From an archaeon (GTDB lineage Archaea > Nanobdellota > Nanobdellia > Pacearchaeales > GW2011-AR1), in contig JAIORZ010000002.1 of the NCBI GenBank assembly GCA_021107855.1, forward strand, positions 64,148 through 128,147: DNA of 64,000 bases, given 5' to 3'. The notes under the pieces were generated by a model. That model was not told the DNA's origin. It saw nothing but the letters and a program-made list of their open reading frames with translations, and ran no database searches. The position numbers and the translations under genes were made by a program. This document shows, piece after piece, positions 1 through 25,456 of this stretch. Numbering within the stretch: the stretch's first letter is position 1; each line of letters starts with the position of its first letter.

Positions 1-1897
1 GATAATCTGAACACGGCTTCCATGGGTCTCCGTTACACTTCTCACAATCGGCACCACCAGCAGGAGGAGTCCACGGACTACAAGTGAAATAGACATATTT
101 TTCTTTTACATCTTTGAACACATACCACCCAATAGGGTCTAAAATTGCTGCAAGAGTTTTACCTATACCAAGCTCGAGAAAAAGTGAATATGATGTCGCC
201 CGCATAAGATAATCACCCCACCCCGATGCCGCATCAGGATTTGCCATACCCGTATCCTCCCACCTATCCTTATCTGCTCCTTGTAGCACATTCAAATACG
301 TCCCAGTTCCCCCCAAAGAATAATTATCCGGACTAATATAGTCCCCCTCAACAACTGTCGTTTTCGATTTATATGCAGCAATCAAAGCAGCAGAAAGAGT
401 CTTAATTGGAAGACTCCTCTTATAGCCTCCAGTGACACTAAATCCCCCATCACTCCACCCCTCCTCAATATTCACATACGAACCACAATCCCCAAGACTC
501 CTACAAAAATCATGCATCTGGTCAGTAAAAGTCTGCTCTGCACAATCACAATTCTGAACACATTCCCACTTAAGTTTATGATTTTTTTTGAAAAGCATAA
601 GACAATCCTGACTAGCTATATCACAAGTAGTACTCGCAGCAGCCGCCGCTTCCGTATCATTCCAGTCAAACCCAGGCGGATACTCCGGCACACACACATC
701 AAATTCAAAGTAATCAACATCAACTTCCAATTCAAAACAATCACGAACACTATCACAACTCTCCCCACTACTCCCCGTATTCAAAGCAAGACACGCCGCC
801 CAACTATTATCAATACAAAGAGAACTTTTAAAACTCACATTAGTCCCATTCACCTCATAATTATTTGTTTGCACACATATCTCCCTCCTCGAATCCGCAC
901 AAGGCTCAACCAACACAGTCCCCTGCGAACAGACATATCTCCAATGCCTCGACCCAACAATATCATAACCATCCCCAATAGTCCCATCATAAACACACCA
1001 AGACTCTCCATTCTCATAACTTTCTCCTTCAAACACACACGCCGTATCCCGACAATAAAAATCCCCAATATCAACATTAAAATTATCCTCACTAGCAGAG
1101 GCACAAATTCCACCATCAAACCGATTACAATTCCCACAACTTGCACTATTAGCGTTCCCATTTGCATCACCATCCCCACAAATCTCTCCAGTCCCCACAA
1201 TAATCCTATTCCAATAACTCGCATCATCAACCCTCCCCGCATCATAAATATTCGCAATATTCCCACACGAATCAACAAAATAAACCCCATCTTTTCCGTC
1301 CACACACTGCGTCTGCCTCGTCATATTGCAACTCGTATTAAGCTCAAAAGAAGTGCAAAGATAGTCCTCAGCAAAATCTCCACCATAAGAATAGCAATCA
1401 GCCTCACTAGTAAATTTACAAGCCCCACCCTCCAAAACACAAGCTCCTTCCTTTTGCACACCAGCCAAAAGCAAACACTCCACCAAATTAAGGTCTCCTC
1501 TCCAATCAACATCCATTCCAGCCGCCAAACTATCTACCTCGCACTGCCCTACTGTCTCAAAAATACTAGTATCCCCCAAAACACAACACCCGAGATTAGC
1601 TCCAATCAAATTACAATACGGGTCATTGATCCAATCCATCGAACAACTTCCCTGTAAAACATTCTTATCATATATCCCACTAGAATCATCATAACAACAA
1701 CCCCTCTCACAAGAGGCGGTCTGATTACATTCCACTCCCTCGGCAAAAAGCGAGCCCTCAGCACAACCATCAATATCCGAAATCACACAATTATCCCCAT
1801 TAACACTCAAAAAACAACATCCCTCCCCAACACCCAACGCCAACACAAACGAAGCCATTAACACAAACCCAATCACTATTCCTATTTTTTTATTCAT
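1..1897 (-). CDS. Large Cys-rich secreted surface protein, paralogue of 2681..6349 (N-terminal ~632 aa; C-terminus beyond window start)
   Basis: The frame is open on the - strand from ATG 1897..1895 (MNKKIGIVIGFVLMASFVLALG, signal-like) to the window edge. It is missing from the ORF track only because no stop lies in the window. Hand translation of 1..540 gives ...FCRSLGDCGSYVNIEEGW...GGADCEKCNGDPWKPCSDY, collinear with CRGLGDCGGSVNIVGEY...GGADCEKCNDDPLKPCSEY of 2681..6349. Antisense track ORFs 512..1657 and 4946..5704 are near-identical over long runs, which confirms nucleotide-level paralogy. Confidence 0.8.
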   Translation of the reverse strand, partial: MNKKIGIVIGFVLMASFVLALGVGEGCCFLSVNGDNCVISDIDGCAEGSLFAEGVECNQTASCERGCCYDDSSGIYDKNVLQGSCSMDWINDPYCNLIGANLGCCVLGDTSIFETVGQCEVDSLAAGMDVDWRGDLNLVECLLLAGVQKEGACVLEGGACKFTSEADCYSYGGDFAEDYLCTSFELNTSCNMTRQTQCVDGKDGVYFVDSCGNIANIYDAGRVDDASYWNRIIVGTGEICGDGDANGNANSASCGNCNRFDGGICASASEDNFNVDIGDFYCRDTACVFEGESYENGESWCVYDGTIGDGYDIVGSRHWRYVCSQGTVLVEPCADSRREICVQTNNYEVNGTNVSFKSSLCIDNSWAACLALNTGSSGESCDSVRDCFELEVDVDYFEFDVCVPEYPPGFDWNDTEAAAAASTTCDIASQDCLMLFKKNHKLKWECVQNCDCAEQTFTDQMHDFCRSLGDCGSYVNIEEGWSDGGFSVTGGYKRSLPIKTLSAALIAAYKSKTTVVEGDYISPDNYSLGGTGTYLNVLQGADKDRWEDTGMANPDAASGWGDYLMRATSYSLFLELGIGKTLAAILDPIGWYVFKDVKEKYVYFTCSPWTPPAGGADCEKCNGDPWKPCSDY

Positions 1898-1899
1898 GT

Positions 1900-2643
1900 C
1901 TACCATTCAAACGCACAACTCCTCACAGCAAATTTAAACTCGCTTCCACTTCTACGGTCAATCACACTATAAATCTTACTATAATCATAATCGGCTCGCT
2001 GAATTTCATACTCAGGATAAACAAACGAATAAGTATCATAATTAAAATGGCAATATTCAGTTTCCCCATTCACAATCTCCCTCACCACCCTAACCAAATC
2101 ATAAATCGGCGACATAATCTCAACCCCGAAATCTTCAAAACTCCTCGTCCCTGTCTCTCCCGAAAGCTCAACACTCTTCTTCAAATTAACCGCAACATGC
2201 CCAGGCAATAAATCAACAGAATAACTCATCGCGCCCTCATCAACATCAAAACCCTCATCCTCAAAACTCTCCCTCATCTTATCAAAACAATCCCCTAACT
2301 CATCTTCTATATCCTCCTCTATCTCTCTCTCAATCTGTAACTCCAACAACGGATGGATATTATAACAAGGATAATAAGACTCATTAATATAACACAAATA
2401 ATTCCACTCTTCCCCTTTGTACAAAATTGTCTTCGACGCCTCTATCTCGCCACCATTCAACAATATCTTATCAATCGACTCCTCCACAGCCTCACGAACA
2501 CAAACCTTAACAAATTCTTGCGGGCTCAAATCACTAGGACTCAAAAATCCACCTTCCCCTTCCGTCAGAAAGAAAAATCCCAAAACAGAAGCAACAAGTA
2601 GAATACCCACTATAATAAAAATCGTCACCTGCCCTCTTTTCAT
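1900..2643 (-). CDS. Pilin-like protein with candidate class III (prepilin-type) signal peptide; paralogue of 6353..7123
   Basis: Track ORF 1900..2865 is trimmed to the internal ATG 2643..2641 (MKRGQVTIFIIVGILLVASVLGFFFL) because the longer version overlaps the end of 2681..6349. KRG-Q followed by ~20 hydrophobic residues resembles archaeal prepilin signals. The rest aligns with 6353..7123 (ILYKGEEWNYLCYI / ILYEGEEWNYLCYQ; FKFAVRSCAF / FRFAVRSCAF). Confidence 0.7.
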   Translation of the reverse strand: MKRGQVTIFIIVGILLVASVLGFFFLTEGEGGFLSPSDLSPQEFVKVCVREAVEESIDKILLNGGEIEASKTILYKGEEWNYLCYINESYYPCYNIHPLLELQIEREIEEDIEDELGDCFDKMRESFEDEGFDVDEGAMSYSVDLLPGHVAVNLKKSVELSGETGTRSFEDFGVEIMSPIYDLVRVVREIVNGETEYCHFNYDTYSFVYPEYEIQRADYDYSKIYSVIDRRSGSEFKFAVRSCAFEW

Positions 2644-2680
2644 CTTAATACCAACATTTTCATATTTATAAATCCCATCA

Positions 2681-5600
2681 TTATGTCGCCACCAGCTCGA
2701 CCAAGCATCCACTCGGCACATTTCCATGAACATCTTTACATCGAATAAAATATTTCTTTCCCTTAACAACCCCAAATTCAAATTCCTTACCCTCCCCAAT
2801 CGAAACACCCTCATCCCAAACAAACTTACATCCGTCAAGCGAATATTTACACTCCGCTCCCTCATTCAAAATCAAATTCACAAAACTTTGGTCCTGCCAA
2901 ATACGACTAACCTGAGGAATCGAGCTATCATGAATAATTTCAAACTCAGTAACACCCCTAGCAAAATCCCCAGTCTCATCCTCGCACTCAACAAAAATCT
3001 CATTCCTTCCGGCTGGACGATTAAAAATCTGCGTATGCATTCTATTTCCTCCCGTCTCAAACAACTCAATCATATTCTCATAACCCGAAAACGAATACGA
3101 ACAAAAATGCTCTTCTCCTCCACCAGAAGTCGCAATCCTCAATTCAACCGTCGTCATATCAGTACTCGTCTGAAAATCAGTCCCCGGCTCAACACTATCA
3201 ATCACAATCACACTCTCCGGCCTCCGAACCTCATAAACAAAACTCCTCAGATTAAAATTACGCTCACTATCATTCAACCACGGCTGGTCCCCACATCTAA
3301 TATAATAAGTATAATTCTGCCTCTGCTCCCCCAACAACAAAGTACTATTACAAACATAACCTAAAACATCCGACGGAGCACCGAAAGAATCCCCACAATA
3401 CATCTCATTCTCCATCTCCGAATGTATAATATCTCTCTCACTCCACCAACAAGTCGCCAACTCATTTGTCACAATCTCCAACTCAACCTCTCCAACAACA
3501 ACCCCAACCAACTCATCATTCTTAGGCGTCGTCTTAACAACCCTTGGCGCACTAATATCCTCACCCTCATTCACACACATCTCAATCTCATAAAATCCAT
3601 CATTCAATATTCCATAAACATCCTGACACCTCACAAACAAACTCAAATCCCCAGTCCAATTATAACCCTGACTCTGCCCGTGACTCGGATCCGGCAAACT
3701 AAAAACCGTCGTATGGTTTATCAGATAAGCATTTCCCCCCAAATCCTGACCCAAACTCTCAAAATCCGTCGCCTCAAAATCAAACTTACAATGCGCCAAC
3801 TCACTCGTCACGACACCAAACATCAAAGGAGTATAAGCATCAATACAGCCTCCCCCACTAGGATTCAAACTAAACCCAGAACTACTGACATCATCATAAA
3901 TAATCCCATCCGAAATCACATCATACTGCGGACTAAGCACAGGCGCCTTCCCATCATCCTCCATAGCACCACACAACTCATTATCAGTCCCAACATTCAT
4001 CAATTCACATGCCGCCCCCAAACTCTCGCACCGGTATTCCGAGCACGGCTTCAGCGGGTCATCATTACACTTCTCACAATCAGCTCCCCCAACAGGCGCC
4101 TCCCATGCCTTACATTCAAACTCAATCTCAATATCATCACAATCACCTGCCCCAAAAAGACTACCAAGAATCATTAATATTACACCTATTATAATTATAG
4201 CCCATCCAACTGGTCCTATCGAAGCAAGACCAGCCCCCAATCCATACCATCCAACAACCGCCCCAATCAAAGCTCCCCCAACTGCCATCAACATGGTCCC
4301 ACCCGGACTCAATTCTAAATAATTCGCCAACATAGTCCCTACAAGCATTCCAATAGAAGCACCCATAGCAGCACCACCAAAAGCACTCAGCCCGGGACTA
4401 CTTCCCAAAAGACCTCCTTCAATAACAGTCATCCCCAAAACCGAACCAGACGTAAGAAAGCTTATCGCCATCGAAACCCCACTCAAACCACTCGCAAAAT
4501 CTTGCATCTTATCCCCAGTATCATCAGCACTCGCATTCAATGACGTCGATGGTCCCCAAATCCCAGCCGCTTCCAAAAACACCGAATAATTTTCAACTTC
4601 CGCAAACTGCCCCGGAACAGGTTTCGCCAAATCTTTCAACTTATCAACCCAACTAGAAGAAAGAAAGAGACTACTATCCGTTACGCCATCCTTAGTAACA
4701 TCATAATTTTCACTATACTCCCCCACAATATTAACCGACCCACCACAATCCCCAAGTCCCCTACAAAAATCATTCATCTCCTCCGCAAAAACACTAGTCA
4801 AACAATCCTCATTCGCAACATATTCACACCCTCTTCCCCATTTCTCACCCTCTCTCACAACCGTGCATGTTTGAGTCCCCATCCCACAAAGTTTCGACGC
4901 CGTAGTCATAGACCTCTCCTCACTTAAACTAAATCCCGCCGGATATTGTGGCAAACAAATATCAAACTCAAAGTAATCCGCAACATCAACCGTCTCAATC
5001 CTACAATTCAACGCACTCTCACAAGCCGTCGTTCCATCTTCCTCGCTATTCAAATTAATACACTCTCTCCAATTATTTGCCACACACGCAGAATCCCGAA
5101 AAGGAACACTCTTTCCATTAACATCAAACTCATCAGCCTGAATACAAATCTGATTTCTATAATCCGCACAAGGCTCAACCACCACAACTCCCTGCGAACA
5201 GACATATCTCCAGTGCCTCGACCCTACAACATCATTCCCTTCCCCAATTGCCCCATCATAAACACACCAAGACTCCCCATTCCTATAGCTCTCTCCCTTA
5301 AAAAGACACGAAGTATCCCTACAATAAAAATCCCCAATATCAACATTAAAATTATCCTCATCAGCCGAACTACAAATACTCCCCGCAAATCGATTACAAT
5401 TTCCACATTCTTCGGAATTCGCATTCCCACCGTCTATATCTCTACTCCCACAAAGGTCTTCCAACTCAGCGACCCTATCCCAATAATCCACATCATCAAC
5501 TTTCCACACATTATAAATATTCGCAGGGTTCCCACAAGAATCAACAAAATAAACCCCATCTTTCCCATCCACACATTGCGTCTGCCTCGTCATCTCACAA

Positions 5601-6349
5601 CTCGTATTAAGCTCAGGAGAGGTGCAAAGATAATCTTCAAAAAAATCTCCACCATAATTATGACAACTCTCCCCTGTCACAAACTTACAAGCTCCACCCT
5701 CTAAAACACAAGCCCCTTCCTTTTGCTCCGTCGCTAAAAGAAAACACCCTGCCTCATTTACATCCTTCCTCCAATCCACACCACCACTATCCCCAAGCGC
5801 CAAAACAAAACTATCAACCTGACACTGCCCCTCGGTCTCATAACTGGTTTCTGCTCCTAAAATACAACAACCCAGAGCGGCACCAGGCAGATTACAATTC
5901 GGATCCTTAACCCACTCCGTCAAACAATCAACCGACAGAACATTCCTATCATAAATCCCAGATGCTTCATCATAACAACATCCCTTCCGACAAAACGCAG
6001 TATCCTTACAAAGCAATCCCTCGGCAAAAGGAGAATCCGCAACACAATTATCAGGAGCGGACGTGCCACACCTTTGCTCATCTTTAGAAATAAAACAACA
6101 ACCAAATCCCTCAGCGAGTGAAGAAATCTCATAAGTTGTCCGCGTCTCATTCCTAAACAAATGACTTCTCTGTGTCCTATTCCACCACTCCTCAAAACTA
6201 AACTCCTCTTCCTCTTCCGCCGAGACCAATGAGAAAACCACATCACTTAAACCAATAAAATAACAAAACGCAAAAAGCGAAACCATCATCAGCATCATCT
6301 CTACACCAGCCACAACCTTTCTACTCCTCACCTTCTTTTTTGTTTCCAT
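2681..6349 (-). CDS. Giant (1222 aa) Cys-rich membrane-integrated surface protein, family not recognised
   Basis: The ORF has an N-terminal hydrophobic anchor (VVAGVEMMLMMVSLFAFCYFIGL). About 600 aa of very Cys-rich sequence follow (GCCYD, GCCILG, CGNCNRF). Four Gly-rich hydrophobic helices lie at nt ~4147..4493. Four ~90-110 aa modules then follow, each bracketed by conserved Cys (A.CK[FY] ... Y.[IV]RC.D..GN). Confidence 0.85.
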   Translation of the reverse strand: METKKKVRSRKVVAGVEMMLMMVSLFAFCYFIGLSDVVFSLVSAEEEEEFSFEEWWNRTQRSHLFRNETRTTYEISSLAEGFGCCFISKDEQRCGTSAPDNCVADSPFAEGLLCKDTAFCRKGCCYDEASGIYDRNVLSVDCLTEWVKDPNCNLPGAALGCCILGAETSYETEGQCQVDSFVLALGDSGGVDWRKDVNEAGCFLLATEQKEGACVLEGGACKFVTGESCHNYGGDFFEDYLCTSPELNTSCEMTRQTQCVDGKDGVYFVDSCGNPANIYNVWKVDDVDYWDRVAELEDLCGSRDIDGGNANSEECGNCNRFAGSICSSADEDNFNVDIGDFYCRDTSCLFKGESYRNGESWCVYDGAIGEGNDVVGSRHWRYVCSQGVVVVEPCADYRNQICIQADEFDVNGKSVPFRDSACVANNWRECINLNSEEDGTTACESALNCRIETVDVADYFEFDICLPQYPAGFSLSEERSMTTASKLCGMGTQTCTVVREGEKWGRGCEYVANEDCLTSVFAEEMNDFCRGLGDCGGSVNIVGEYSENYDVTKDGVTDSSLFLSSSWVDKLKDLAKPVPGQFAEVENYSVFLEAAGIWGPSTSLNASADDTGDKMQDFASGLSGVSMAISFLTSGSVLGMTVIEGGLLGSSPGLSAFGGAAMGASIGMLVGTMLANYLELSPGGTMLMAVGGALIGAVVGWYGLGAGLASIGPVGWAIIIIGVILMILGSLFGAGDCDDIEIEFECKAWEAPVGGADCEKCNDDPLKPCSEYRCESLGAACELMNVGTDNELCGAMEDDGKAPVLSPQYDVISDGIIYDDVSSSGFSLNPSGGGCIDAYTPLMFGVVTSELAHCKFDFEATDFESLGQDLGGNAYLINHTTVFSLPDPSHGQSQGYNWTGDLSLFVRCQDVYGILNDGFYEIEMCVNEGEDISAPRVVKTTPKNDELVGVVVGEVELEIVTNELATCWWSERDIIHSEMENEMYCGDSFGAPSDVLGYVCNSTLLLGEQRQNYTYYIRCGDQPWLNDSERNFNLRSFVYEVRRPESVIVIDSVEPGTDFQTSTDMTTVELRIATSGGGEEHFCSYSFSGYENMIELFETGGNRMHTQIFNRPAGRNEIFVECEDETGDFARGVTEFEIIHDSSIPQVSRIWQDQSFVNLILNEGAECKYSLDGCKFVWDEGVSIGEGKEFEFGVVKGKKYFIRCKDVHGNVPSGCLVELVAT

Positions 6350-6352
6350 ATT

Positions 6353-7123
6353 TTAAATCCCCGGCGCGAACGCACAACTCCTCACAGCAAACCGAAACTC
6401 GTCTCCACTCCTCCTATCAATCAACCGATAAATCTTACTGCCCGAATAATCAATTCTTCTAATATCATACCTAGGATACAAAAGCATATACCCATTATAC
6501 TCAAAATTACAAAACTGCGACTCACTGTTCACAACATCCCGAGCCACACTAACCAAATCATAAATCGGCGACACAACTTCAATCCCAAAATCCTTAGAAC
6601 TCTGAGTCCCCATATCCCCAGAAATATCAACCTGCCTCGACAAATCAACCTTAACATACCCAGGCAACAAATCAACAGAAAAACTCATCACACCAATCTC
6701 AACATCAAAACCCTCATCCCTAAAACTCTCCCTCATCCTATCAAAACAACTCTCTACCCCACCCGATATATCCTCCTTAATCTCGCTCTCAATTCTCAAT
6801 TCCAACATCGGATGAATATTATAACATCCCTGATAAAAATCCGCCTGATAACACAAATAATTCCACTCTTCCCCCTCATACAAAATGGCCTGCGATGGCA
6901 CCGCCTCACCACCATTCCTCATCATCTTATCAACCGAATCCTTAACCAAATCAGAAACACATCCCCTAACAATAGTCCGCGGGTCCAAATTATCAGCCCT
7001 ATCAACACCAGTCTCTCCCAAAAGCAAAAACGACAAAAGAATCATAGCTACAATCACGATACTAACCATGAAAAAAATCGCCACCTGTCCTTTTGTTCCA
7101 ACACCCATTTTTTTATTTACCAT
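6353..7123 (-). CDS. Pilin-like protein with candidate class III signal peptide (256 aa)
   Basis: The N-terminus MVNKKMGVGTKGQVAIFFMVSIVIVAMILLSFLLL has a KG-Q motif plus a hydrophobic helix. It is a paralogue of 1900..2643. Its ATG shares one nucleotide with the stop of 7123..7824 (TAATG), which suggests translational coupling. Confidence 0.75.
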   Translation of the reverse strand: MVNKKMGVGTKGQVAIFFMVSIVIVAMILLSFLLLGETGVDRADNLDPRTIVRGCVSDLVKDSVDKMMRNGGEAVPSQAILYEGEEWNYLCYQADFYQGCYNIHPMLELRIESEIKEDISGGVESCFDRMRESFRDEGFDVEIGVMSFSVDLLPGYVKVDLSRQVDISGDMGTQSSKDFGIEVVSPIYDLVSVARDVVNSESQFCNFEYNGYMLLYPRYDIRRIDYSGSKIYRLIDRRSGDEFRFAVRSCAFAPGI

Positions 7124-7824
7124 TAATCGATTTCCACGTATAAATAATATACTACATTACCTCCAATACTTTCATTCCCATAATCTGGCACAATCATCTG
7201 AAAATCATAAATACCACCATCATAACCACCAACATCATCTTCAATCTCCGTAGCAAAAACAATATCAGTATCATCAAACAAAACAATTTCTTCAAAACTA
7301 GAATTCTGAGTAACATTATCAACATATGCATTTGAAGCAAAACAATCCCCAACGCCAACAGAAAAACTAGCGATAACATAAGTTTCAATATTTGTCCCGG
7401 AAAAAGTGGACGAGATATTATCACCTCCAGAATGTTGTAAGGCACTATCCTCACTATTAATCTGACTAGTATTAGCACAGCCAATATTCCCCCACTCAAT
7501 AGACCCAGAGCCACGAGTAGCGTAAACTTCCCCGCCAGTAGTGGAAGATGACCAATCATAAACCGTAGAACCCGTAGAATCATCCAAAGTAAATTTCCCA
7601 TTAACCCAACCAACAAAACCCTTCCAACGAGAATTCTGTGAAATCGAAGAGATATTCATTTTAGCAACATAAGCACCAGAAATATTGACCATCCAAGGAT
7701 TAGCAGCCCCAGCCCCAGTCTCGTTATACGTTATATTCAAAGAGCTAGGTCCGGTCGGAAGTCCAGCAACAATACCCAAAAATCCAACCAAAAAAATCAA
7801 AACAAATCCTATTTTAACATCCAT
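7123..7824 (-). CDS. Secreted/anchored protein rich in N-x-S/T sequons (233 aa), hypothetical
   Basis: The N-terminal signal or anchor is MDVKIGFVLIFLVGFLGIVAG. The protein carries about 10 N-glycosylation sequons. It is packed tightly between the wHTH gene and the pilin-like gene. Confidence 0.7.
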   Translation of the reverse strand: MDVKIGFVLIFLVGFLGIVAGLPTGPSSLNITYNETGAGAANPWMVNISGAYVAKMNISSISQNSRWKGFVGWVNGKFTLDDSTGSTVYDWSSSTTGGEVYATRGSGSIEWGNIGCANTSQINSEDSALQHSGGDNISSTFSGTNIETYVIASFSVGVGDCFASNAYVDNVTQNSSFEEIVLFDDTDIVFATEIEDDVGGYDGGIYDFQMIVPDYGNESIGGNVVYYLYVEID

Positions 7825-7994
7825 AAGTTCACCCCCGCTTTTTTAATTCTATCAACTTCCCCATCCAAAGCCAATTCCATCAGATGTTTCTCCGCAGTAT
7901 TCCAAGAAACACTAAACTTCTCCGCCACCTCGCTACTTGTCACAATTCTCTCTTTCTTAATCAAAGCAATAATCTTTTTACTATGTATCTTCAT
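7809..7994 (-). CDS. Small winged-helix/HTH DNA-binding protein (61 aa)
   Basis: Track ORF 7809..8096 is trimmed to ATG 7994..7992. The product MKIHSKKIIALIKKERIVTSSEVAEKFSVSWNTAEKHLMELALDGEVDRIKK... has a wHTH-like pattern. It overlaps the next gene by 16 nt. Confidence 0.55.
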   Translation of the reverse strand: MKIHSKKIIALIKKERIVTSSEVAEKFSVSWNTAEKHLMELALDGEVDRIKKAGVNLWMLK

Positions 7995-8110
7995 AATAAT
8001 ACACCTACTAATATACACACTAATACTCGCGCCAATACACTCATCAATATACCTATGAATATTCATATATAAATGTTCGCAAAATAAAAACTTCAAACTA
8101 TATACATCAA

Positions 8111-8149: not shown

Positions 8150-9036
8150 AGAATCAACAACAAATTTAAGGACACGAACAACGGCACATCGTAGTTGTTA
8201 TTTCAAACCACTGCGAACCAAACCAAAAACCCCCACTACTCCAGCATTCTTCATGGTCAGCTGCCCCAGGCCAAAAACCAGTATAACTATTCACGCAACT
8301 ATGAGCGGTGCCAATCCCAATAGCATTTTCTCCCTTGCTTGCACAGAAATTAACACAAGTTCCCTCCCAATCATAATAATCATGATCTCCCGGAATACAA
8401 CAGCTCTTAGTTCCACTTACCGTCCTCGTCCTACCACAATTCGTCTGAACAACCGTATCCGTAGAACAAACACCATCCCTCGGAGGAGACCAAATAGTAT
8501 AAGCAAAATCCCCATCATCAATCGCCTTCTGCAAACTCTTCTCTCCATTAAAATCAACTAAAATATCATCTCCAACATGACCCAAATAATCGCTACCAGA
8601 ATAACCACCACTCCCCCCCCCTGATGAACAAAGCGATCCATCATTAATAGAATCTTGTAAACTCTTATCAAAACCATTAACATTAACAAAAAGCTCAGCT
8701 CCCCGATGTCCAATATCCACAGCACTCGTATACGTCCCCCCATTATAATCTATTCCAAACTGCCCCGAATTAATAGCACTCTGCAATTCCAATTCCTGCC
8801 CATTGATAAAAACAAAAACATCATCTCCTCCATGTCCAGGACTCGAAATACTTTGAGAATAACCAACAACCAAACCAACACTCAATAAAACAAAAACAAA
8901 AACAAACCTCACATTAACCATATTATTATTAAGAATAATTATTATTTAAATATTTCGAACTTTTTCCATTTTCCAAATCTAAAACTCAATTATAAAACCA
9001 TCAACAATCCCTAACCCAACCTCCGAACATACTCAG
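8134..9036 (-). mobile_element. Candidate integrated single-gene cassette (no integrase) bounded by the PCNA-end direct repeats
   Basis: The segment lies between the two copies of the 19-nt core. It holds only CDS 8166..8921, a TATA-like box (ATATTTAAATAA on the - strand, ~8943..8955) and the surrogate last codons of PCNA. Confidence 0.35.
8166..8921 (-). CDS. Secreted protein with three ~45-aa repeats and a Cys-rich C-terminal domain (251 aa)
   Basis: The signal peptide is MVNVRFVFVFVLLSVGLVVG. The three repeats read GHGGDDVFVFINGQELELQSAINSG / GHRGAELFVNVNGFDKSLQDSINDG / GHVGDDILVDFNGEKSLQKAIDDG. A C-terminal domain with ~12 Cys follows. Confidence 0.75.
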   Translation of the reverse strand: MVNVRFVFVFVLLSVGLVVGYSQSISSPGHGGDDVFVFINGQELELQSAINSGQFGIDYNGGTYTSAVDIGHRGAELFVNVNGFDKSLQDSINDGSLCSSGGGSGGYSGSDYLGHVGDDILVDFNGEKSLQKAIDDGDFAYTIWSPPRDGVCSTDTVVQTNCGRTRTVSGTKSCCIPGDHDYYDWEGTCVNFCASKGENAIGIGTAHSCVNSYTGFWPGAADHEECWSSGGFWFGSQWFEITTTMCRCSCP

Positions 9037-13220: not shown

Positions 13221-15263
13221 TTATTTAGGACAGCCGTTACAAAAAGACAAGTCTTCTCTATAATATTCGTCCAATGGAGCGTATCCGTAATCGTCATGAT
13301 CTCCGAATCTTTCATCTTCAATCCATAGCCAATAGCCTTCATTATTGAAAAGTCTATTTACGTCAACCATATGTGCATCATCGTCAATGTCAAAGACATG
13401 TAGTTCATTGTCTCTACCCATCGTCAAACTCTCTAGCGCAGTCCGCTTAGATATTGCTCCAGCGTCCCAACAAGTTTCTCCTTCAAAAGGACCATCGTGT
13501 CCAAGGATACCATACCTTCCAATTAAGGACCAGCTATTGCCAGGAACCTCAATTTCTGGTGGCATACCAGGAACCCCATTTTGTCCAATCTGAGTACCGA
13601 AACCCTTAATCTGAGCGGCTTCATCCATATCCAACCAGTAACCTCTACCAGGAACTATTTGCTCCAACTTAGTATCTGTACCAGAGCAAAAAGCCGTAGA
13701 CCAGGAACCATCATCAGTTTTCCTACACTTCCAGGAACTCACATCCCCATTAGCGTCATACTCATAAGACCAGATAGAAGCAAGCTCATCCTTAATCTGA
13801 ACAATTCCGACACCCTCGTCATTAATACTAGAATCTTCAGGGACATAAGGTATAGAAACTAAATTCCAACCTTCATCTAAGTCAATTATCCAACTATAAA
13901 CCATTATGTTGAATGAAAAGTACTTAGTCTCCCATCCATTTGAAACTCTAATAACCACGAAATGGTTTCCTTGTTCATCATTAGTCGGATTCTCGCTTAA
14001 TCCCCATGGAGGCGGACTATCATTATCCCATCTAACTCGGCATTCTCCGTCATCAAAAGATCGAGACCTTAAATTATCAGGACCAATATAGACCCCGCAA
14101 CTTTTAAAGCTCATACCTGTCAATCCAGTTTCAAAAGATCTCCAGTGGTCACCAGCATCCTCGCCGAAATCAACCATCAAAGGATAGTACGCAGCAACTT
14201 CTTGAGGACCACCATCCAATGGAATTGGCTCAATCACTTCAATCATGTGCATACAGTCTTCACTCACTCCGCCGTCTTTATCTTCAACAGACAAAACAAC
14301 TTCGTAATAACCAGGACTAGTATATGTGTGCGTAACACTTGGATTACCACTATCAGAACTAGAGTCACCGAAATCCCAATTGAAAATCAATGGAACTAAT
14401 TCGTCGACTTTATCAGAAGCATCGCTAGCATATCCAGTGAATGTTGCATCCGCTTCACCACCAATCAATGGAACCTCAGAAGGCCCATCAATTCCTTCGC
14501 AAACTGGTGCAACGTTAATTTCCTCAATCTCCGCACTATCAGAACCTTCATTACCAACATTATCAGTAACGATTAGCTCAACATCTAAATTTGCAGGTCC
14601 GTCAAGACATTCGTATTCCAGCGTCTCTCCCTCGCCAACGAAAACTCCGTCGACATACCAATCCCAACTATCAATTTCACTTGGAAACTGACCAGGGTCG
14701 TAAGAATCACCACCATCAAGAGTGATAGAATCACCCTCAAAACAGGTATAAAGTCCTAGAACACAATTAGCTTGACAACAAGGATCATCACACTCATCAT
14801 CACAATCTGGTGTCCACCAATATCCATCACAATAACAAGTCTCTCCATTTGCGTCAACAATTGGATCCCTATTATCAATGTAAACTGGACCTTCCATATC
14901 ATCATCACAGCACTCTCCTTCCACTATGACACAAACCTCAGCCTCGCTGAAGCCCGATATGTCCCATTGATATTCAGTGTCTACATGAACCTCGTTTAAC
15001 CAAGCTTCCAATTCACAATCTCCGTCATCCCAGAAACCGTAATAGACATCCCAATCATTTCCACAATCGTCTCCGGTAGCAGTCCAATCAATCAACATGT
15101 CTCCCTGAGCAGTGCTATAATAATCACCCTCCGAAGGGTTCACTATATTTACATTACAATCTCCGCAAATCTCCGCAACTTCAATCTCCTCAGCAACGAC
15201 AATCCCACTAGTAGTCAGCATAATTCCTAACATGAATATTACACTTAACATTATTTTTCTCAT
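13221..15263 (-). CDS. Secreted PKD-domain surface protein (680 aa)
   Basis: The signal peptide is MRKIMLSVIFMLGIMLTTSGIVVA. A classic PKD motif reads FNWDFGDSSSDSGNPSVTHTYTSPGYYEVVLSVEDKDGG, and a second PKD-like unit lies upstream. The mature N-terminus is acidic and Cys-rich. Confidence 0.8.
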   Translation of the reverse strand: MRKIMLSVIFMLGIMLTTSGIVVAEEIEVAEICGDCNVNIVNPSEGDYYSTAQGDMLIDWTATGDDCGNDWDVYYGFWDDGDCELEAWLNEVHVDTEYQWDISGFSEAEVCVIVEGECCDDDMEGPVYIDNRDPIVDANGETCYCDGYWWTPDCDDECDDPCCQANCVLGLYTCFEGDSITLDGGDSYDPGQFPSEIDSWDWYVDGVFVGEGETLEYECLDGPANLDVELIVTDNVGNEGSDSAEIEEINVAPVCEGIDGPSEVPLIGGEADATFTGYASDASDKVDELVPLIFNWDFGDSSSDSGNPSVTHTYTSPGYYEVVLSVEDKDGGVSEDCMHMIEVIEPIPLDGGPQEVAAYYPLMVDFGEDAGDHWRSFETGLTGMSFKSCGVYIGPDNLRSRSFDDGECRVRWDNDSPPPWGLSENPTNDEQGNHFVVIRVSNGWETKYFSFNIMVYSWIIDLDEGWNLVSIPYVPEDSSINDEGVGIVQIKDELASIWSYEYDANGDVSSWKCRKTDDGSWSTAFCSGTDTKLEQIVPGRGYWLDMDEAAQIKGFGTQIGQNGVPGMPPEIEVPGNSWSLIGRYGILGHDGPFEGETCWDAGAISKRTALESLTMGRDNELHVFDIDDDAHMVDVNRLFNNEGYWLWIEDERFGDHDDYGYAPLDEYYREDLSFCNGCPK

Positions 15264-16197: not shown

Positions 16198-19100
16198 TTA
16201 AATAGGGTTAGATGTTCCTTGAGTAGGAGTCGAGAATATATAAAAGTCAACACTGTCTACATCGGTATCATGCCCGTCAGGAGAACGACCAGCCGACTCT
16301 CCCTCAGAAGGAGCAGGTGCATTATCCCCAACATTCCCATCGTCCCTATCTCCATAAGTAACCTCATCTACTAATCCATCTGAATAATCATCCAGTTTAA
16401 TTGTATCTCCCTCATCATCCAATTCATCACTACCAAAACCATCAAACACCCTAAATCCATAAGCATCAATATCCCCACCTAAAACTAAAGTCCAAGAAGC
16501 ACCATCATTCAAAGTCCAATCAGTTAAGTCAACAGAATAAGCATGAGGATTATACAATTCAATCCACTCACAATCGTCACATTCAGGATAAGAAACAAAC
16601 TCATTTATCTTGATATTTTGCTCCTCAATCATGCAAGTTGAAGAACACCCATCTCCATCCTCGACATTACCATCATCACATTCTTCACCCTCTTCCAAAT
16701 TACCATTACCACAAACAGGCATTTCCATTTCATCATCATCCGAAGCATCATCACACCCATAATCTTCAGGATAATCAATATCCCCATCTAAATCATTATC
16801 AATACCATCATCACACTGTGGCCTTGGCTCTTCAACAACCTGCCCGTGCAAACTAATCATTCTACAATGCGCGTCAGTCCTAGAGTTACCCATAGAGAAG
16901 CCCAAGTCAGTATCACTTTCCGCAACATAAAGATTATCACAAGCAACCGCATTAAACATATATCGACCCTCTCCACTAATATCATACTCAGTCAAATTAA
17001 CAGTAATAGCATATAACCCGTTATTTTGCTCATTCAAATTAACCCATCCAGTATCCTCACAGCCACCAAGAGACCAGCATATACCTAACACTCCAGGAAC
17101 CTCTGAAATTTTAAACATAACAGTTTCATCAGCAATCGGCGACTGACTATCCTCAACATTCAACGAAACAGGGAACATCTCACCATAAACTTCTCCTTCC
17201 ATAGGTGCAACAACACTCATAGTAGGTCTAGTATTATCAACAATCATCGGGATGACTACGCTTCCAATATTGAACAACTCATCTCTCACATTAACCTTCA
17301 CGAAGTAATCTCCAGACGCTAAACCATCAGGAACAGCCCCATTAATTCTACACAAATTATATTCCGGCTCAGTCCCAATAATGTCCGCCACCCCGACATA
17401 CTCTCCCACTTCCCCTCCATCATCTTCATATACTTCCGCCCAGCAACTATCAAATCCAGAAGCATACTCAATTACTTCTACTTCTACAAATACATTATCC
17501 CCGTCTCCACTACTCGTCAAAGGACCAGGTAAATTACTATCATCAACAGCAACTATAGGACCATCATTATCAATATTCATTGTAATCGGACTAAACCAAG
17601 GATTCAAAGCCAACTGCAAGTGATAACCGAACAATTCATTTCCCCGATTTCCAGCTTTATCAACATAATCTATCCCCAAAAACACCGTATCAGTCATACC
17701 ACTACCCAAGGGCAAAGCAGCAGTTCCCTTACAAACACCATCCTCATATGGAACCTGCCCCAAATAAACTACATTAGGATTAGCACCAACCTGCTGGAAG
17801 TAAGTCCACAAGTCCCTATAGCACTCCTTAATTTCAGACTGATTCATCCCCTCAAAGTTATAATCAATAGCATATAAGTCACAATAATCCACACCCGAAG
17901 CAGGGCAGTCATCTTCATATCCATAATAACATAACGAGCAGAAATCTCCACCGAAGTCTACAGCAGGCGCGTAAACCTGGAAAGGAATCTCATCTCTATA
18001 ATAATTACCAGCATGAGGGTTCAAAACCACTCCCATAGGAGGCACGTTATCCACGATAATCTCAATACCATTTGTCCACTCACCAACATTACCAAGCAAA
18101 TCTATACCCATAACCTCGAATCTCCACTTACCACATTCTCCCATCCCACATCCTTCCCTAATCTCGCCACCAGTCATCTCAATACAATAAGCATTCTCAA
18201 TAGGATCCCAAATCAACTCAGGGTCGTCCAATCCAACAAACTGATACCAGACCTCACCAATCCCAACACCAGGGTCGCCAGTTTGTTTAAAATCAACAAG
18301 TTCAGCACAAAGCTTAATGCTATCTTCACTCTGAATAGCGATAACAACCTCATCTCCAACACTTCCACCCTCGATAACTTCCCCACCATTAACCATAGCA
18401 AACTTCCTAGTCACATTAGGGCCCTGACTATCAACAGTATCAAGTTCCGACTTAACTACTTCCTCATTCCCAAAATTATCAACACAATACCATTCAAGAG
18501 TGTGATTCGAGTCTTCACCAAAAGTTATTGGTCCATCGTAGGGCATCCAACTACCAAATCCTTCTCCATCTAAATCATATCTCCAAAAGATTTCATCAAC
18601 ACCACTTGGATGAGGACCAAAGTCTTCACAAAATAACGAGATTTCAGTTCCCTGAGTAATCCAATAATCACAGATTTCAACCTCTGGGTTACAATCAGGA
18701 TCAACCAATATACTTGGGTCCCCCATTTCTTTCCAACTCTCCGGAGGAGTTAAATCAACCGCATCAAGTTCAAATGTATGTTCTTCTTCATTCCCAAGAG
18801 CATCAACACACCAGTATTCAACCATGTGATATGAGGATTCATGGAAAGTTATTGGCGACCCGTCATACACAATATCTTCACTCCAAGGAGTCCAGTCCAC
18901 ACCAAATTCACTATACTTCCATCTCCAATACATAGTTACTTCACCAACAGGATGTGGATCAACATCATTACAATCAAATGTAATCTCTGTACTCCCATTA
19001 ACTAACCATCCCTCGTCATAAGGAATATCCAATTCCTCTTCTAGCGGGATTTTTGGCTCCCCAACAGTCTTAATAGTTTCAGGCGCCTCTGTATCAACAA

Positions 19101-22100
19101 AGACACATTGCCTCTTAACTTCTTCAGTTTTATTAACCATATCAACACTATAATACTCAATCACGTGACATGAATCTTCAGTCACCGTAAAAGGTACATC
19201 ATAAGTTTGCCACGGAGTTGGCACGTTCATTTCTAAATAATCTGGAACACCATCCCATCCTTCACAGCCATCATAACAATACTGCCAGTTATTTGGATTG
19301 TTCAACACTCTCACTCTATAGAATGTATCAGCAAGTCCCGAATCATGATTTGAACCAAAGTCGTCAGTCGCAGTCAAAATTATAGATGTTTGTTGCGTTA
19401 TCCATTTAGGGTATGCACCCACAACAGGTTCATACAACGGCTCACCGTATGTTTTTATAGTAACAGGTTTTGTATGGTCAACATAAAAGTCAGCCGTATT
19501 AGCCACCTCTTCGTTCCCGAGGCTATCCACACAATAATATTGTAATTCATGATGTGATTCTTCTGGGAATACAAATGGATTGGTATAATTAGTCCACGCA
19601 GTCCAAGCGCCAAATCCTAAACCTTCATCAACTCTATATCTAAACAACATATATTCTTCACCAACAGGATGAGGTCCAAAATCTTCACATTCAAGAACTA
19701 ATTCAGTTACTCCATCAATATAAAGTTCATCAAATTTGCCAAGATGTGTTGGTCCTTCAAAATGATGTTCTGATTCAGGAGGAAGCGTATCCACAATATC
19801 AAGCTCGTAATGTGTCTCTCCTTCATTCCCAAGAGCATCAACACAATAATAATACAATTCATGATATGTGTCTTGATTATACGTAAAAGGATCCATACAT
19901 AATTGCCAGTCCTGTATCAACACACCATCATTAAAGTATGTACACCAAATTTCGACATCATTAACAGGATGCGGCTCGACATCAACACAATTCAAATCAA
20001 TAAGAGTATTTTGCGTAACAAAAACAGCTTCATCCGAAACATCATATTCTTCCTGTGGATGAGTAAAAAGATATTCAAAATCATAATACTCAGAACTAGC
20101 ACCAGTCCAAACCTTAGGTTCTCCCACGATTTTACTAACCAAAGGTGCCTCGGTATCAACAATATCCAGCTCTACATGACTAACCTCGGTATTACCAAAA
20201 GCATCCACGCACCACCAAGTCAACTTATGAAAAGAATCTCCTTCATAATAAAATTCGACAGAATTTCCCCCGTTCGGACTTATAGGTCCAAGCTGCCACT
20301 CATCAGCCCAATTCAACTTCCAATCAATAGTATAATAAATTTCCTCTCCGCCGATAGGATGCGGTTCAACATCAGCACAAGTCAAAGTAACAAGTGTATC
20401 TTGTGTAACATAAGCACAGTCCGGGTAACCAGGGTATTCGCCCGTTTCACAAAGAACAAATGCCCCTGCTTCAAGTTCTTTTTCACTTACAGGCGCCTTC
20501 TCATCAATAATATCCAATTCCCAATAATGCTCACTCTCCCATCCACAACCATCAACCGCCCAAAATTCAACCAAGTGATATGAGTCCCCAGTTAGCGTAA
20601 AAATTAATTCTTCATCAGGAGCACTCTGCCCCGAATCATTAAGACTCCAACTACTTCCATCTTCACTCCACCAAACCCTATAATAGATAATCACTTGTCC
20701 CGCAAATTCATGGTCATCAACAAATGTCGAATCATCAGCCCACAAACGAATCTGAGTTCCCGACTTTACATATTGACATCCATGAGTAATAGTCTCTCCC
20801 ATCATTTCAGAAATACCACACTGGAGTACAACATCTCCAAACGGCAAAAGCTCCTTGTAAACAAGAGGCGCTTTCGTATCCTTAATAAAAGAATAGTTCA
20901 AATTCTGACTCCAAATCTTCCCCCAATTCTCAACAATATCCTTTCCTCTTATCTGATTAATCCAATGTGTCCCTTCCACCAAATCTGGATGAGATGGCTC
21001 TGTCCACTGATGCCCAAAAACATCGTGATCAACAGGATCTGTATAATTAAGTGGAACATATCTTTCCAAATCAGCACAATGCCACCCATCACTATAATAC
21101 TGATCTTCTATTGGAGGAGCATCCATCCAATAACCAGTCCAAGGAGCCGGGATATCTTCTGGAGGAATCCACATATTAAGAAAAAACTCCCCACCCTGAA
21201 GCCATGATTCCGAATCACAAACAGTTAGTTTTAACAAAGGGTCATCTCCACAAATTAAAAGTTCATTAGGATTTTCCACCCCATTTAAAGTCACGTCAAA
21301 AACTCTTTCTGGGGGAACAGTATCCGACTCAAAATATTTACACGAACAATCACCCAAATTTCCTAAACTATCATACGATTGTATACAAAGAAAATTCTGC
21401 CCATCCTGAATTGTAACCGGCGTATTATAATGGTGCTGTTCTAAATCCTCAATCAATTCATCAAAAGACATATCAACCGCATCCATAGGATGAGGGTTTC
21501 CAAAACAACCAGCAGTTCCCTGCCCAACAAAGTATTCCGCCGACGCAACAGCCGAGCATTCATCAGTTGCAGTTCCAGAAACATCAAAGTTACCATTATT
21601 ATATATAGGGTTAACATCAACATCCGAAGTCACAGGTCCCAAAATATCATCAATATCATAAGTACAAGAGTCATTATTTTCATAACAAACATCAAAACAA
21701 CTATCTCCATCATCACAAGGGTTCCCAGGATTTGTACAAACTCCCTCTCCCTCACAAGTTTCTTCCCCATTGCAAAAATCCCCGTCATTGCAATTTGCTG
21801 TTGAAGATGCCGCTACACAATGAGCCGTTCCATCATTAACACATTCTTCAGTAGCATGAACCCAAAAGTCCCCATTACAAGAATTAACATTCCCATCATT
21901 ACAATCATCAATTACATAAGGATCTCCTAATTCACAATTTAACGAAATACAAACACCATCCCTATAAACAACATAACCATCTGCACAATAATCATCATCT
22001 GGACAATCCTCATCATACTCACACTCAACAGCACCAACAAAACCAACCACAAAACTGAAGATTAAAACCAAACTTAAGAAGCTAAATACACTTTTCATAC

Positions 22101-22113
22101 AAACTAATAACAC
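16198..22113 (-). CDS. Giant (1971 aa) multi-Ig/HYR-like repeat adhesin-like protein with Cys-rich repeats and C-terminal lamin-tail (LTD) domain
   Basis: The protein has a signal peptide and a Cys-rich N-terminus. About 11 modules of ~100 aa each end in [YF]H.[LV].[YW][YW]CVD..GNEE...ELD.VD...P. Further motifs are DNDLDGDIDYPEDYGCDD and CGNGNLEEGEECDDGNVEDGDGCSSTC. The LTD signature is INEFVSYPECDDCEWIELYNPHAYSVDLTDWTLND. The start may instead be the MKSVFSF Met, 5 codons downstream. Confidence 0.85.
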   Translation of the reverse strand: MLLVCMKSVFSFLSLVLIFSFVVGFVGAVECEYDEDCPDDDYCADGYVVYRDGVCISLNCELGDPYVIDDCNDGNVNSCNGDFWVHATEECVNDGTAHCVAASSTANCNDGDFCNGEETCEGEGVCTNPGNPCDDGDSCFDVCYENNDSCTYDIDDILGPVTSDVDVNPIYNNGNFDVSGTATDECSAVASAEYFVGQGTAGCFGNPHPMDAVDMSFDELIEDLEQHHYNTPVTIQDGQNFLCIQSYDSLGNLGDCSCKYFESDTVPPERVFDVTLNGVENPNELLICGDDPLLKLTVCDSESWLQGGEFFLNMWIPPEDIPAPWTGYWMDAPPIEDQYYSDGWHCADLERYVPLNYTDPVDHDVFGHQWTEPSHPDLVEGTHWINQIRGKDIVENWGKIWSQNLNYSFIKDTKAPLVYKELLPFGDVVLQCGISEMMGETITHGCQYVKSGTQIRLWADDSTFVDDHEFAGQVIIYYRVWWSEDGSSWSLNDSGQSAPDEELIFTLTGDSYHLVEFWAVDGCGWESEHYWELDIIDEKAPVSEKELEAGAFVLCETGEYPGYPDCAYVTQDTLVTLTCADVEPHPIGGEEIYYTIDWKLNWADEWQLGPISPNGGNSVEFYYEGDSFHKLTWWCVDAFGNTEVSHVELDIVDTEAPLVSKIVGEPKVWTGASSEYYDFEYLFTHPQEEYDVSDEAVFVTQNTLIDLNCVDVEPHPVNDVEIWCTYFNDGVLIQDWQLCMDPFTYNQDTYHELYYYCVDALGNEGETHYELDIVDTLPPESEHHFEGPTHLGKFDELYIDGVTELVLECEDFGPHPVGEEYMLFRYRVDEGLGFGAWTAWTNYTNPFVFPEESHHELQYYCVDSLGNEEVANTADFYVDHTKPVTIKTYGEPLYEPVVGAYPKWITQQTSIILTATDDFGSNHDSGLADTFYRVRVLNNPNNWQYCYDGCEGWDGVPDYLEMNVPTPWQTYDVPFTVTEDSCHVIEYYSVDMVNKTEEVKRQCVFVDTEAPETIKTVGEPKIPLEEELDIPYDEGWLVNGSTEITFDCNDVDPHPVGEVTMYWRWKYSEFGVDWTPWSEDIVYDGSPITFHESSYHMVEYWCVDALGNEEEHTFELDAVDLTPPESWKEMGDPSILVDPDCNPEVEICDYWITQGTEISLFCEDFGPHPSGVDEIFWRYDLDGEGFGSWMPYDGPITFGEDSNHTLEWYCVDNFGNEEVVKSELDTVDSQGPNVTRKFAMVNGGEVIEGGSVGDEVVIAIQSEDSIKLCAELVDFKQTGDPGVGIGEVWYQFVGLDDPELIWDPIENAYCIEMTGGEIREGCGMGECGKWRFEVMGIDLLGNVGEWTNGIEIIVDNVPPMGVVLNPHAGNYYRDEIPFQVYAPAVDFGGDFCSLCYYGYEDDCPASGVDYCDLYAIDYNFEGMNQSEIKECYRDLWTYFQQVGANPNVVYLGQVPYEDGVCKGTAALPLGSGMTDTVFLGIDYVDKAGNRGNELFGYHLQLALNPWFSPITMNIDNDGPIVAVDDSNLPGPLTSSGDGDNVFVEVEVIEYASGFDSCWAEVYEDDGGEVGEYVGVADIIGTEPEYNLCRINGAVPDGLASGDYFVKVNVRDELFNIGSVVIPMIVDNTRPTMSVVAPMEGEVYGEMFPVSLNVEDSQSPIADETVMFKISEVPGVLGICWSLGGCEDTGWVNLNEQNNGLYAITVNLTEYDISGEGRYMFNAVACDNLYVAESDTDLGFSMGNSRTDAHCRMISLHGQVVEEPRPQCDDGIDNDLDGDIDYPEDYGCDDASDDDEMEMPVCGNGNLEEGEECDDGNVEDGDGCSSTCMIEEQNIKINEFVSYPECDDCEWIELYNPHAYSVDLTDWTLNDGASWTLVLGGDIDAYGFRVFDGFGSDELDDEGDTIKLDDYSDGLVDEVTYGDRDDGNVGDNAPAPSEGESAGRSPDGHDTDVDSVDFYIFSTPTQGTSNPI

Positions 22114-25364: not shown

Positions 25365-25408
25365 ATTATTTAGTGTTTTGTAGCTTTATAAGGTTTTGCC
25401 ACTTTTAA

Positions 25409-25437
25409 ATAGTATCAAAACGCAAACTTTATAAATA
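25409..25437 (+). promoter_or_regulatory. Conserved BRE/TATA promoter module, copy 1 (upstream of galE)
   Basis: atagtatcaaaacgcaaactttataaata matches 26436..26464 at 26/29 nt. The TATA box ends ~20 nt before ATG 25457. Confidence 0.55.
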
Positions 25438-25456
25438 AAATTCCCCGCTAAAATTA

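Follow-up and report, generated by a model that had tools for sequence, protein, structure and literature searches.

This analysis concerns a 64,000-nucleotide stretch of DNA (hereafter the window) from an archaeon of the GW2011-AR1 lineage (Pacearchaeales; assembly GCA_021107855.1, contig JAIORZ010000002.1, positions 64,148-128,147). At one end of the window, genes for small proteins with a prepilin-type (class III) signal alternate with genes for giant cysteine-rich surface proteins. This gene string is a real, non-artefactual and lineage-wide module built from two unannotated protein families. With moderate confidence, its products are proposed to form a heteromeric, membrane-anchored complex on the outer face of the membrane, specific to DPANN archaea of the Woesearchaeota and Pacearchaeota type and made from one expression unit. 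An initial annotation of this DNA had presumed a DPANN archaeon, in agreement with the labels of the relatives recovered here (Woesearchaeota, Pacearchaeota or Nanoarchaeia).

The string consists of six minus-strand genes, whose coordinates, strand, lengths and junctions are all as first annotated. It begins with a winged helix-turn-helix (wHTH) protein of 61 residues (7809-7994, ATG at 7994), equal in length to its orthologues, followed by an accessory secreted protein of 233 residues (7123-7824). The first pair comprises small1 (256 residues, 6353-7123), a membrane-anchored protein with a class III signal and a novel alpha/beta ectodomain, and its partner giant1 (1222 residues, 2681-6349), a surface protein with 65 cysteines and a predicted central transmembrane bundle. 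The second comprises small2 (247 residues, 1900-2643), a paralogue of small1, and its partner giant2 (1-1897), a secreted paralogue of giant1 lacking the transmembrane bundle, of which the N-terminal 632 of 1079 residues precede the window edge. Junctions calculated from the open reading frame (ORF) coordinates are -16, -1, +3, +37 and +2 nucleotides from the wHTH gene to giant2, the first being a 16-nucleotide overlap between the wHTH gene and its neighbor, and the proposal of a single co-directional, tightly packed string is thereby borne out.

The head gene of the string scores above the curated cut-offs of HTH/wHTH models (Pfam DUF977, PF06163, 23.8 bits against a cut-off of 22.1; HTH_DeoR, PF08220, 21.4 against 21). 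Its orthologues, one of which is 51% identical (locus L023), are annotated as DUF977 or FaeA, or are replaced by a ribbon-helix-helix (RHH) protein of family RHH_1. In at least 13 related loci an HTH or RHH gene (50-92 residues) overlaps the first small gene, and this wHTH/RHH protein probably regulates the unit.

Paralogy of the giants and of the small partners, as initially suspected, lies far beyond chance. The giants align collinearly, with 46% identity over 705 columns (E = 0) for the portion of giant2 inside the window and 48% when its full length is used, and small1 and small2 are 57% identical (E = 9e-99). A sister contig (L001), identical over the overlap, runs on past the window edge, providing the full 1079 residues of giant2 (P0091) and, after it, a third pair formed by small3 (MEKKGQVTIF...) and giant3, a 560-residue homologue of the N-terminal half of the giants. 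Small3 is 31-33% identical to small1 and small2, and giant3 is 30-33% identical to giant1 and giant2. These matching levels of identity indicate two duplications of the two-gene unit as a whole, an ancient one and a later one. Duplication of the pair as a unit is therefore upheld, while the original count of two pairs must be raised to three on the sister contig. Nor does the arrangement represent a local tandem duplication, being instead an old module of two or three pairs spread across the lineage.

In the genome represented by the sister contig the C-terminal half of giant3 is missing. Directly after the truncated gene (17555-18409 of L001) lies an ORF for a 284-residue protein with a Sec signal and the C-terminal sequence ...GGFVLKF, which resembles an outer-membrane beta-barrel of bacteria; the gene is foreign, or else the contig is chimeric at this point.

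In order to gain insight into the conservation of the module, related loci were compared. All 16 GTDB species loci show the arrangement HTH/RHH - small - giant - small - giant, within the reach of each contig. These loci come from species-representative genomes that bear the labels Woesearchaeota, Pacearchaeota or "archaeon", and their genes are ordered PCNA - wHTH - small1 - giant1 - small3 - giant3 wherever the contig extends. The same unit occurs in loci L019-L021; it recurs in every one of about 20 related loci, and in those examined small1 is always directly upstream of the giant1-type gene. A three-pair version, in which the small2 position is occupied, is found in L021 and in JGI 3300072015. 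Giant3 is full length (1386-1400 residues) in the three-pair loci of other genomes, and elsewhere, in many genomes, consists of the N-terminal domain (N-domain) only, sometimes with a separate ORF for the C-terminal half after it. Each orthologous group (A, A' and B pairs) is kept across genomes, and the persistence of the three as distinct groups over long distances suggests that they are non-redundant subunits of a single assembly rather than interchangeable adhesins.

Two distant Pacearchaeota extend this pattern. Their small proteins are only 28-34% identical to those of the window, and their loci follow the order RHH/HTH - small - giant (1262-1273 residues) - small - N-domain protein (504-510 residues), with the A/B orthology kept. 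Here the module adjoins an AI-2E transporter and SecDF, and PCNA is not a neighbor. Conservation of the module in differing neighborhoods indicates that the module itself is the conserved unit and not merely part of a syntenic block. Both the pairing and its order are thus retained in all related loci examined, so that the refuting condition named with the initial proposal, a relative without the pairing, did not arise among them. Nucleotidyltransferase/HepT (HEPN) toxin-antitoxin pairs occur within or beside the module in three loci (L019, 14567-15167; L021, 20018-20903; L023, 18446-19101). The pair in L019 is inserted between small3 and giant3, and the relatives keep the module order despite such insertions.

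The small partners belong to a large family. A word-indexed search with small1 recovered 236 clusters at E <= 1e-3 (57-88% identity), and an exhaustive profile search recovered 2983 representatives of 50% clusters, 450 of them with E <= 1e-30. Almost all are 245-275 residues long, and those that carry a name are without exception listed as "hypothetical protein" from Pacearchaeota or Nanoarchaeia. In an alignment of 41 sequences the N-terminus reads M-x(1-12)-[KR]-G-Q-[VL]-[TA]-I-F, followed by some 20 (about 22) hydrophobic residues, with the Gln (Gln13 of small1) invariant and the Gly (Gly12) at least 90% conserved. Among 145 diverse full-length representatives, 125 carry [KR][GA]Q and all but one (144) have the Gln followed by the hydrophobic run. 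A FlaFind-type regular expression for class III signals is matched by small1 (KGQVAI), small2 (RGQVTI, residues 3-8) and small3 (KGQVTI), and among ORFs of at least 80 residues in the window only small1 and small2 match it. The motif, K-G-Q or R-G-Q plus hydrophobic helix, spans residues 11-35 of small1 (7019-7093, minus strand) and 3-27 of small2 (2563-2637, minus strand). Class III-type N-termini, first suggested by inspection, are thus supported both by this pattern and by the family-wide [KR]-[GA]-Q. In Methanococcus maripaludis, Gln at position +1 is essential for processing by the pilin-specific peptidase EppA (PMC4390842). Also, class III signals are found on non-pilin surface proteins, such as the solute-binding proteins of the bindosome (bioRxiv 10.64898/2026.04.22.720090).

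Beyond the signal, the AlphaFold2 model of small1 is confident (predicted local distance difference test, pLDDT, 82) and consists of a transmembrane helix (residues 10-36), a flexible linker of low confidence and a two-lobed alpha/beta domain of 215 residues. Each small protein has 4-6 cysteines, and six cysteine positions are invariant among small1/small2-type sequences. A Foldseek search of this model against the PDB gave no match at E <= 1e-3, the best TM-score being at most 0.15; SnoaL/NTF2-like, PCNA, XLF and TolB folds, which headed the matches with TM-scores in that range, were rejected. Comparison with BFVD yielded nothing informative (one uncharacterised phage protein, TM 0.25), and a profile search against PDB sequences returned only three chance-level matches to unrelated proteins (E 0.1-0.3).

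The giants form a second family, with 408 clusters at E <= 1e-3 and as sole annotation one NCBI label, "glycine zipper family protein". Giant1 and giant2 each contain 64-65 cysteines (5-6% of residues) and 10-13 sequons. Their common element, and that of giant3, is a cysteine-rich N-domain of about 500 residues, which in giant1 occupies residues ~75-600 (4550-6127, minus strand) and in which 38 cysteines are invariant across the giant1, giant2 and giant3 types. Because this invariance holds across paralogues and species, the explanation of cysteine-richness as a by-product of an extremely G+T-rich coding strand was rejected. The most conserved stretch of giant1, residues 361-400, lies within the N-domain and reads ...NGESWC.YDG...GSRHW.Y.C..G.V..EPCADYRN.IC....

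Giant2 and giant3 possess an N-terminal signal, and giant1-type proteins a conserved N-terminal hydrophobic segment. According to hydropathy, the hydrophobic segments of giant1 are residues 11-44 and 625-738 (within the latter, 625-643 and 686-738), while the N-terminal signal is the only one in giant2. The centre of giant1 has the glycine-zipper consensus AAIGAGIGM..G.MLA..LGLSPGGS.LM..GG; this hydrophobic region (residues ~610-738; 4136-4522, minus strand) probably makes 2-4 membrane passes. Its place in giant2 is taken by a stretch predicted to be disordered (residues 530-597 of the AlphaFold2 model, pLDDT 79.7). Since the two halves of the giants are cysteine-rich and occur together in giant2, which is fully secreted, both probably face outward, and the number of passes in the central bundle of giant1 is then probably even. 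At the N-terminus of giant1-type proteins (6218-6319 of the window), a conserved motif, KK-x-[IV]-A-[GS]-F-E-[LM]-x-L-M-x-x-S-x-F-A-F-x-Y, is followed by a variable spacer and, just before the cysteine-rich domain, by a second motif, P-[MI]-[IV]-P-x-V-S-A. The first places a charged residue inside the helix and is pilin-signal-like, yet falls outside the class III pattern; the second is reminiscent of a Sec cleavage site.

Residues 600-1079 of the giant2 model are all-beta and match the Ig-Fn domains of PTP-delta, the GhpA grappling hook and titin in the PDB by Foldseek (E 1e-12 to 1e-8). As modelled, the C-terminal half of the giants is a string of Ig/Fn3-like domains, and the similarity is generic. 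By homology to this region, the C-terminal half of giant1 (2684-4135, minus strand) would consist of a small Cys-knotted domain and then a string of Ig/Fn3-like beta-sandwiches. The search was run on the whole giant2 model, so that Ig/Fn3 strings swamp any signal from the N-domain. No PDB sequence was matched by the giants at E <= 1 in a profile search, and they have no fitting Pfam, NCBIfam, PHROG or PADLOC family and no structure match beyond generic Ig-like domains. When 14 N-domains were run singly, 11 gave a weak Pfam match to CoV_NSP4_N (best E 8e-5); this family, Vault and SH3_5, all weakly matched, were judged probably compositional. The initial remark that the giants belong to no described family thus agrees with the searches of Pfam, NCBIfam, PDB, PHROG and PADLOC, and the same applies to the small partners.

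No gene for a pilus or archaellum ATPase, platform protein or A24 (prepilin-type) peptidase was detected by Pfam among 37 further ORFs of the window that were scanned, as initially noted, nor was any filament ATPase, platform or A24 peptidase gene found within 10 kb on either side of the module in the relatives. A crude motif scan of about 450 kb of related loci likewise recovered no A24 peptidase or filament ATPase. Pilin genes can sit apart from their machinery, and the small proteins may depend on such genes despite the lack of linkage. Also present in the window are genes for PCNA, the primase small subunit, form III RuBisCO, a thermosome and aminoacyl-tRNA synthetases. A search of IMG/VR recovered no relatives of the module, and PHROG and PADLOC gave no matches; on the absence of viral relatives and PHROG matches and on its core-gene neighbors (PCNA, primase), a viral or mobile origin was rejected.

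Rates of change also bear on function. Module proteins show p-distances of 0.33-0.42 against 0.23 for PCNA, their rates being 1.4-1.8 times that of PCNA. The small partner is more conserved than giant1, which is itself conserved evenly along its length, without a hypervariable domain. Such slow and uniform evolution fits a host-specific adhesin poorly, and the host-contact role proposed at the outset is a hypothesis that the conservation pattern does not favor. Pairwise distances of the four core proteins correlate beyond what PCNA accounts for (partial r 0.55-0.75).

The gene order and its conservation, the pattern of paralogy, the signal motif, the extracytoplasmic features and the domain architecture are observed, and the membrane-anchored complex favored here could be assembled from them as follows. 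Under control of the HTH (or RHH) protein that the first gene of the string encodes, the small protein would be exported and cut after [KR]-[GA] by an A24 (EppA/PibD-like) peptidase encoded elsewhere, leaving Gln as the new N-terminus, and its hydrophobic helix of about 22 residues would serve as membrane anchor or oligomerisation element. The disulfide-bonded alpha/beta ectodomain may then bind the cognate giant encoded directly downstream. Cysteine-rich N-domains and small ectodomains together would form a rigid membrane-proximal core, the sole part present in every paralogue, with the glycine-zipper transmembrane bundle of giant1 fixing the assembly in the membrane and the Ig/Fn3-like stalk projecting outwards. 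Two or three non-interchangeable pairs (A, A' and B) would join into one complex, whose biological role could be that of an envelope scaffold, of cell-cell contact or of a conduit.

Several observations weigh against parts of this scheme. The small partners have no Pfam or NCBIfam match even at E <= 1, pilin, archaellin and class III models included, and their ectodomain, in the AlphaFold2 model and its Foldseek comparison with the PDB, is not pilin-like in fold, lacking a helix that runs into a beta-sheet or Ig-like head. The term "pilin-like" originally applied to them consequently holds for the signal, that is, the first ~35 residues, and fails for the globular fold, the Pfam models and the linkage to filament genes. 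As neither peptidase nor ATPase was found in the window or in the ~450 kb scanned, processing would depend on genes outside that DNA. Insertions between small3 and giant3 in relatives indicate that strict co-translation of the pair is not required. Also, a TATA-like TTTATAAATA (2663-2672) lies 22-31 nucleotides upstream of the small2 start, so that the string may hold more than one promoter; its reading as one conserved expression unit leaves room for an internal promoter at small2. Co-evolution extends beyond cognate pairs, partial r reaching its maximum between small1 and small3, and as evidence it is weak because a single control gene (PCNA) was used and the distances are not independent. 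Finally, peptidase processing, 1:1 binding of small protein and giant, hetero-oligomer formation and any role in envelope architecture or cell-cell contact are steps that we infer.

A pilus-tip or minor-pilin complex, with the small proteins as true minor pilins, incorporated at the tip or base of a filament by a type IV machine encoded elsewhere, and the giants as adhesins for host attachment, is an unlikely alternative. The class III motif with Gln at +1 is kept family-wide (PMC4390842), two or three distinct small paralogues recall heteromeric minor-pilin tips, and Ig-like stalks are typical of adhesins. Filament loci are known from DPANN archaea, namely the Epd-like system 1 and, in some Nanoarchaeota, subsystem 4A, whose minimal form is often accompanied by an adhesin (bioRxiv 10.64898/2026.04.22.720090). 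Against this, in about 20 loci the module never adjoins an ATPase, platform or peptidase gene, the 215-residue ectodomain of the small protein has no pilin among its Foldseek matches, the transmembrane bundle of giant1 better suits a membrane-embedded protein, and evolution is slow and uniform, unlike that of host-specific adhesins.

A bolder version of the favored complex appears comparably doubtful. Here the two or three pilin-anchored small proteins and their giants would constitute a new, lineage-defining envelope machine, in which the glycine-zipper bundle acts as a channel or as a device for membrane insertion, serving contact and exchange with a partner cell, and which is assembled without a dedicated pilus ATPase.

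Slightly less probable is a cell-envelope lattice in which the giants are the main, S-layer-like wall proteins and the small proteins serve them as membrane stalks, in the way that SlaB of Sulfolobales serves SlaA. It would account for the gene of a large Ig-domain glycoprotein adjoining that of a small membrane-anchored partner, for the N-glycosylation sequons of the giants and for the occurrence of the module in every related locus sampled (genomes without the module were not searched for), and would suit the presence of a glycosylation gene island and an archaeosortase-like gene in the same window (described below). S-layer proteins are typically poor in cysteine, whereas those of the module contain 5-8%, with 38 invariant positions in the N-domain. 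Moreover, a constitutive wall protein is not usually headed by a small regulator of its own, giant3 consists of the N-domain only in many genomes, and the profile search found no PDB sequence match, to SlaA and SlaB no more than to any other. Known S-layers also have one or two subunits (PMC5744192), fewer than the four to six different ones encoded here.

Similarly improbable is that the small protein serves as a dedicated membrane-anchored assembly or folding factor for the giant, acting in disulfide formation or quality control, with an ordinary uncleaved signal anchor at its N-terminus. The invariant cysteines of the small1/small2-type sequences, the 1:1 position of a small gene upstream of each giant, the stronger conservation of the small protein relative to giant1 and a fold unlike that of pilins could all be taken this way. 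Yet neither a CxxC motif nor a thioredoxin-like fold was found in the alignment, the AlphaFold2 model or the Foldseek matches, a plain signal anchor leaves unexplained a near-invariant [GA]-Q whose short distance from the start is fixed, and a general foldase needs no separate paralogue for each giant. A cytochrome-like electron conduit was dismissed, no CxxCH motif being present in the translated sequences.

Two genes near the head of the string fall outside the module proper. The 233-residue protein bears an N-terminal hydrophobic signal and nine N-x-S/T sequons, and has no family match in Pfam, NCBIfam, PHROG or PADLOC scans. Of the loci blasted (L003-L018), those of a single related genome yielded a homologue (L009, the same contig as L019); the protein is absent from most of these relatives and lies outside the conserved core. 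Between the PCNA and wHTH genes (8166-8921) is encoded a secreted protein of 251 residues with 12 cysteines, without family match and without homologue in the same blasted loci. Several other relatives have a gene for a 233-273-residue protein just upstream of the HTH gene, which was not compared with it.

Elsewhere in the window, an archaeosortase-like (Exosortase_EpsH) gene (37395-38396) and two further large surface proteins, a 680-residue PKD protein (13221-15263) and a 1971-residue lamin-tail (LTD) protein (16198-22113), make this DNA rich in envelope genes. Lacking a C-terminal sorting signal, the giants are probably not substrates of the archaeosortase. A low-GC island (28-32%) with almost no GC skew extends from 25457 to 35296 and contains an epimerase, three glycosyltransferases, a DUF2206 membrane protein, a polysaccharide deacetylase/LamG protein and a 691-residue protein of unknown function; its deviating composition suggests recent acquisition of a glycan-synthesis cluster. 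A protein with a GGDEF diguanylate-cyclase domain (E = 3e-43), unusual for archaea, is encoded at 58066-58767 in a stretch of lower GC and weak skew beside a class V aminotransferase, and may have been acquired from bacteria.

Apart from the regions 25400-35300 and 58000-60100, the window (1-64000) shows an extreme strand asymmetry, with a GC skew of about -0.5 on the plus strand. At third codon positions, minus-strand genes have a skew in the coding sense of +0.7 to +0.9, and plus-strand genes one of -0.6 to -0.8. These opposite values indicate that the asymmetry, mitochondrion-like in magnitude, follows the DNA strand and not gene orientation. Related loci, oriented alike, have skews of +0.2 to +0.5, which makes it a trait of the lineage.

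Woesearchaeota and Pacearchaeota rank with the most widespread of the uncultivated archaea, and their small genomes imply dependence on other cells. To our knowledge, neither their envelope nor their way of contacting a partner has been described. The module is among the few large, strongly conserved and lineage-specific gene sets of these groups with clear extracytoplasmic features. It links two "dark matter" families, with about 3000 representatives of the small partner and more than 400 clusters of the giants, and offers a testable architecture together with a biochemical prediction, namely cleavage before the invariant Gln. Should it prove to be an envelope scaffold or contact device, it would be a natural target for cryo-electron tomography, metaproteomics and heterologous reconstitution, and prepilin-type signals in archaea would extend beyond pilins and solute-binding proteins.

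Among known systems, the complexes of PilY1 with minor pilins and the GspK-I-J tips are cases in which several pilin-like proteins act with a large non-pilin surface protein. The module differs from them in that no beta-propeller or PilY1-like domain was detected, in its location outside any pilus operon, and in a pairing that is strictly 1:1 and duplicated. With the Epd pilins of M. maripaludis, which are processed by EppA, the small proteins share a short basic n-region, Gly or Ala at -1, Gln at +1 and about 20 hydrophobic residues. Unlike Epd pilins, they match no pilin or class III Pfam model, have a 215-residue ectodomain without structural match and no adjacent filament genes, and are always paired with a cysteine-rich protein of more than 1000 (or ~500-600) residues. 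The binding proteins of the Sulfolobales bindosome provide a precedent for globular, non-pilin proteins that carry a prepilin-type signal and are encoded apart from the filament machinery (bioRxiv 10.64898/2026.04.22.720090). In contrast to these, the small partner has neither the fold of a solute-binding protein nor a Pfam match, no ABC transporter is found nearby, and the associated protein is a cysteine-rich giant.

The two-component S-layer of SlaA and SlaB (PMC11329633, PMC5744192) resembles the module in that the gene of a large outer protein, multi-domain and beta-rich, adjoins that of a small protein anchored in the membrane. The module differs from it in lacking sequence similarity, in being very rich in cysteine, in comprising two or three paralogous pairs and in having a giant1 predicted to be itself embedded in the membrane. 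Also, the anchor of the small partner is N-terminal and pilin-type, whereas the SlaB-type anchor is a C-terminal transmembrane helix.

At the level of gene families, Castelle et al. 2021 described "Module 98", a set of 51 families, mostly of unknown function, restricted to the Woesearchaeota together with the Pacearchaeota, and reported that many lineage-specific families of DPANN archaea are membrane-bound or extracellular (PMC8204110). Module 98 is shared by exactly the lineages that carry the small-giant module, and the small and giant families are probably among its members. In that work the families are only listed, with no paired architecture, class III signal or gene module (PMC8204110), and literature searches found no description of the two families or of any of these three. 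The module shares single features with class III proteins, with two-component S-layers and with minor-pilin complexes, and fails defining features of each.

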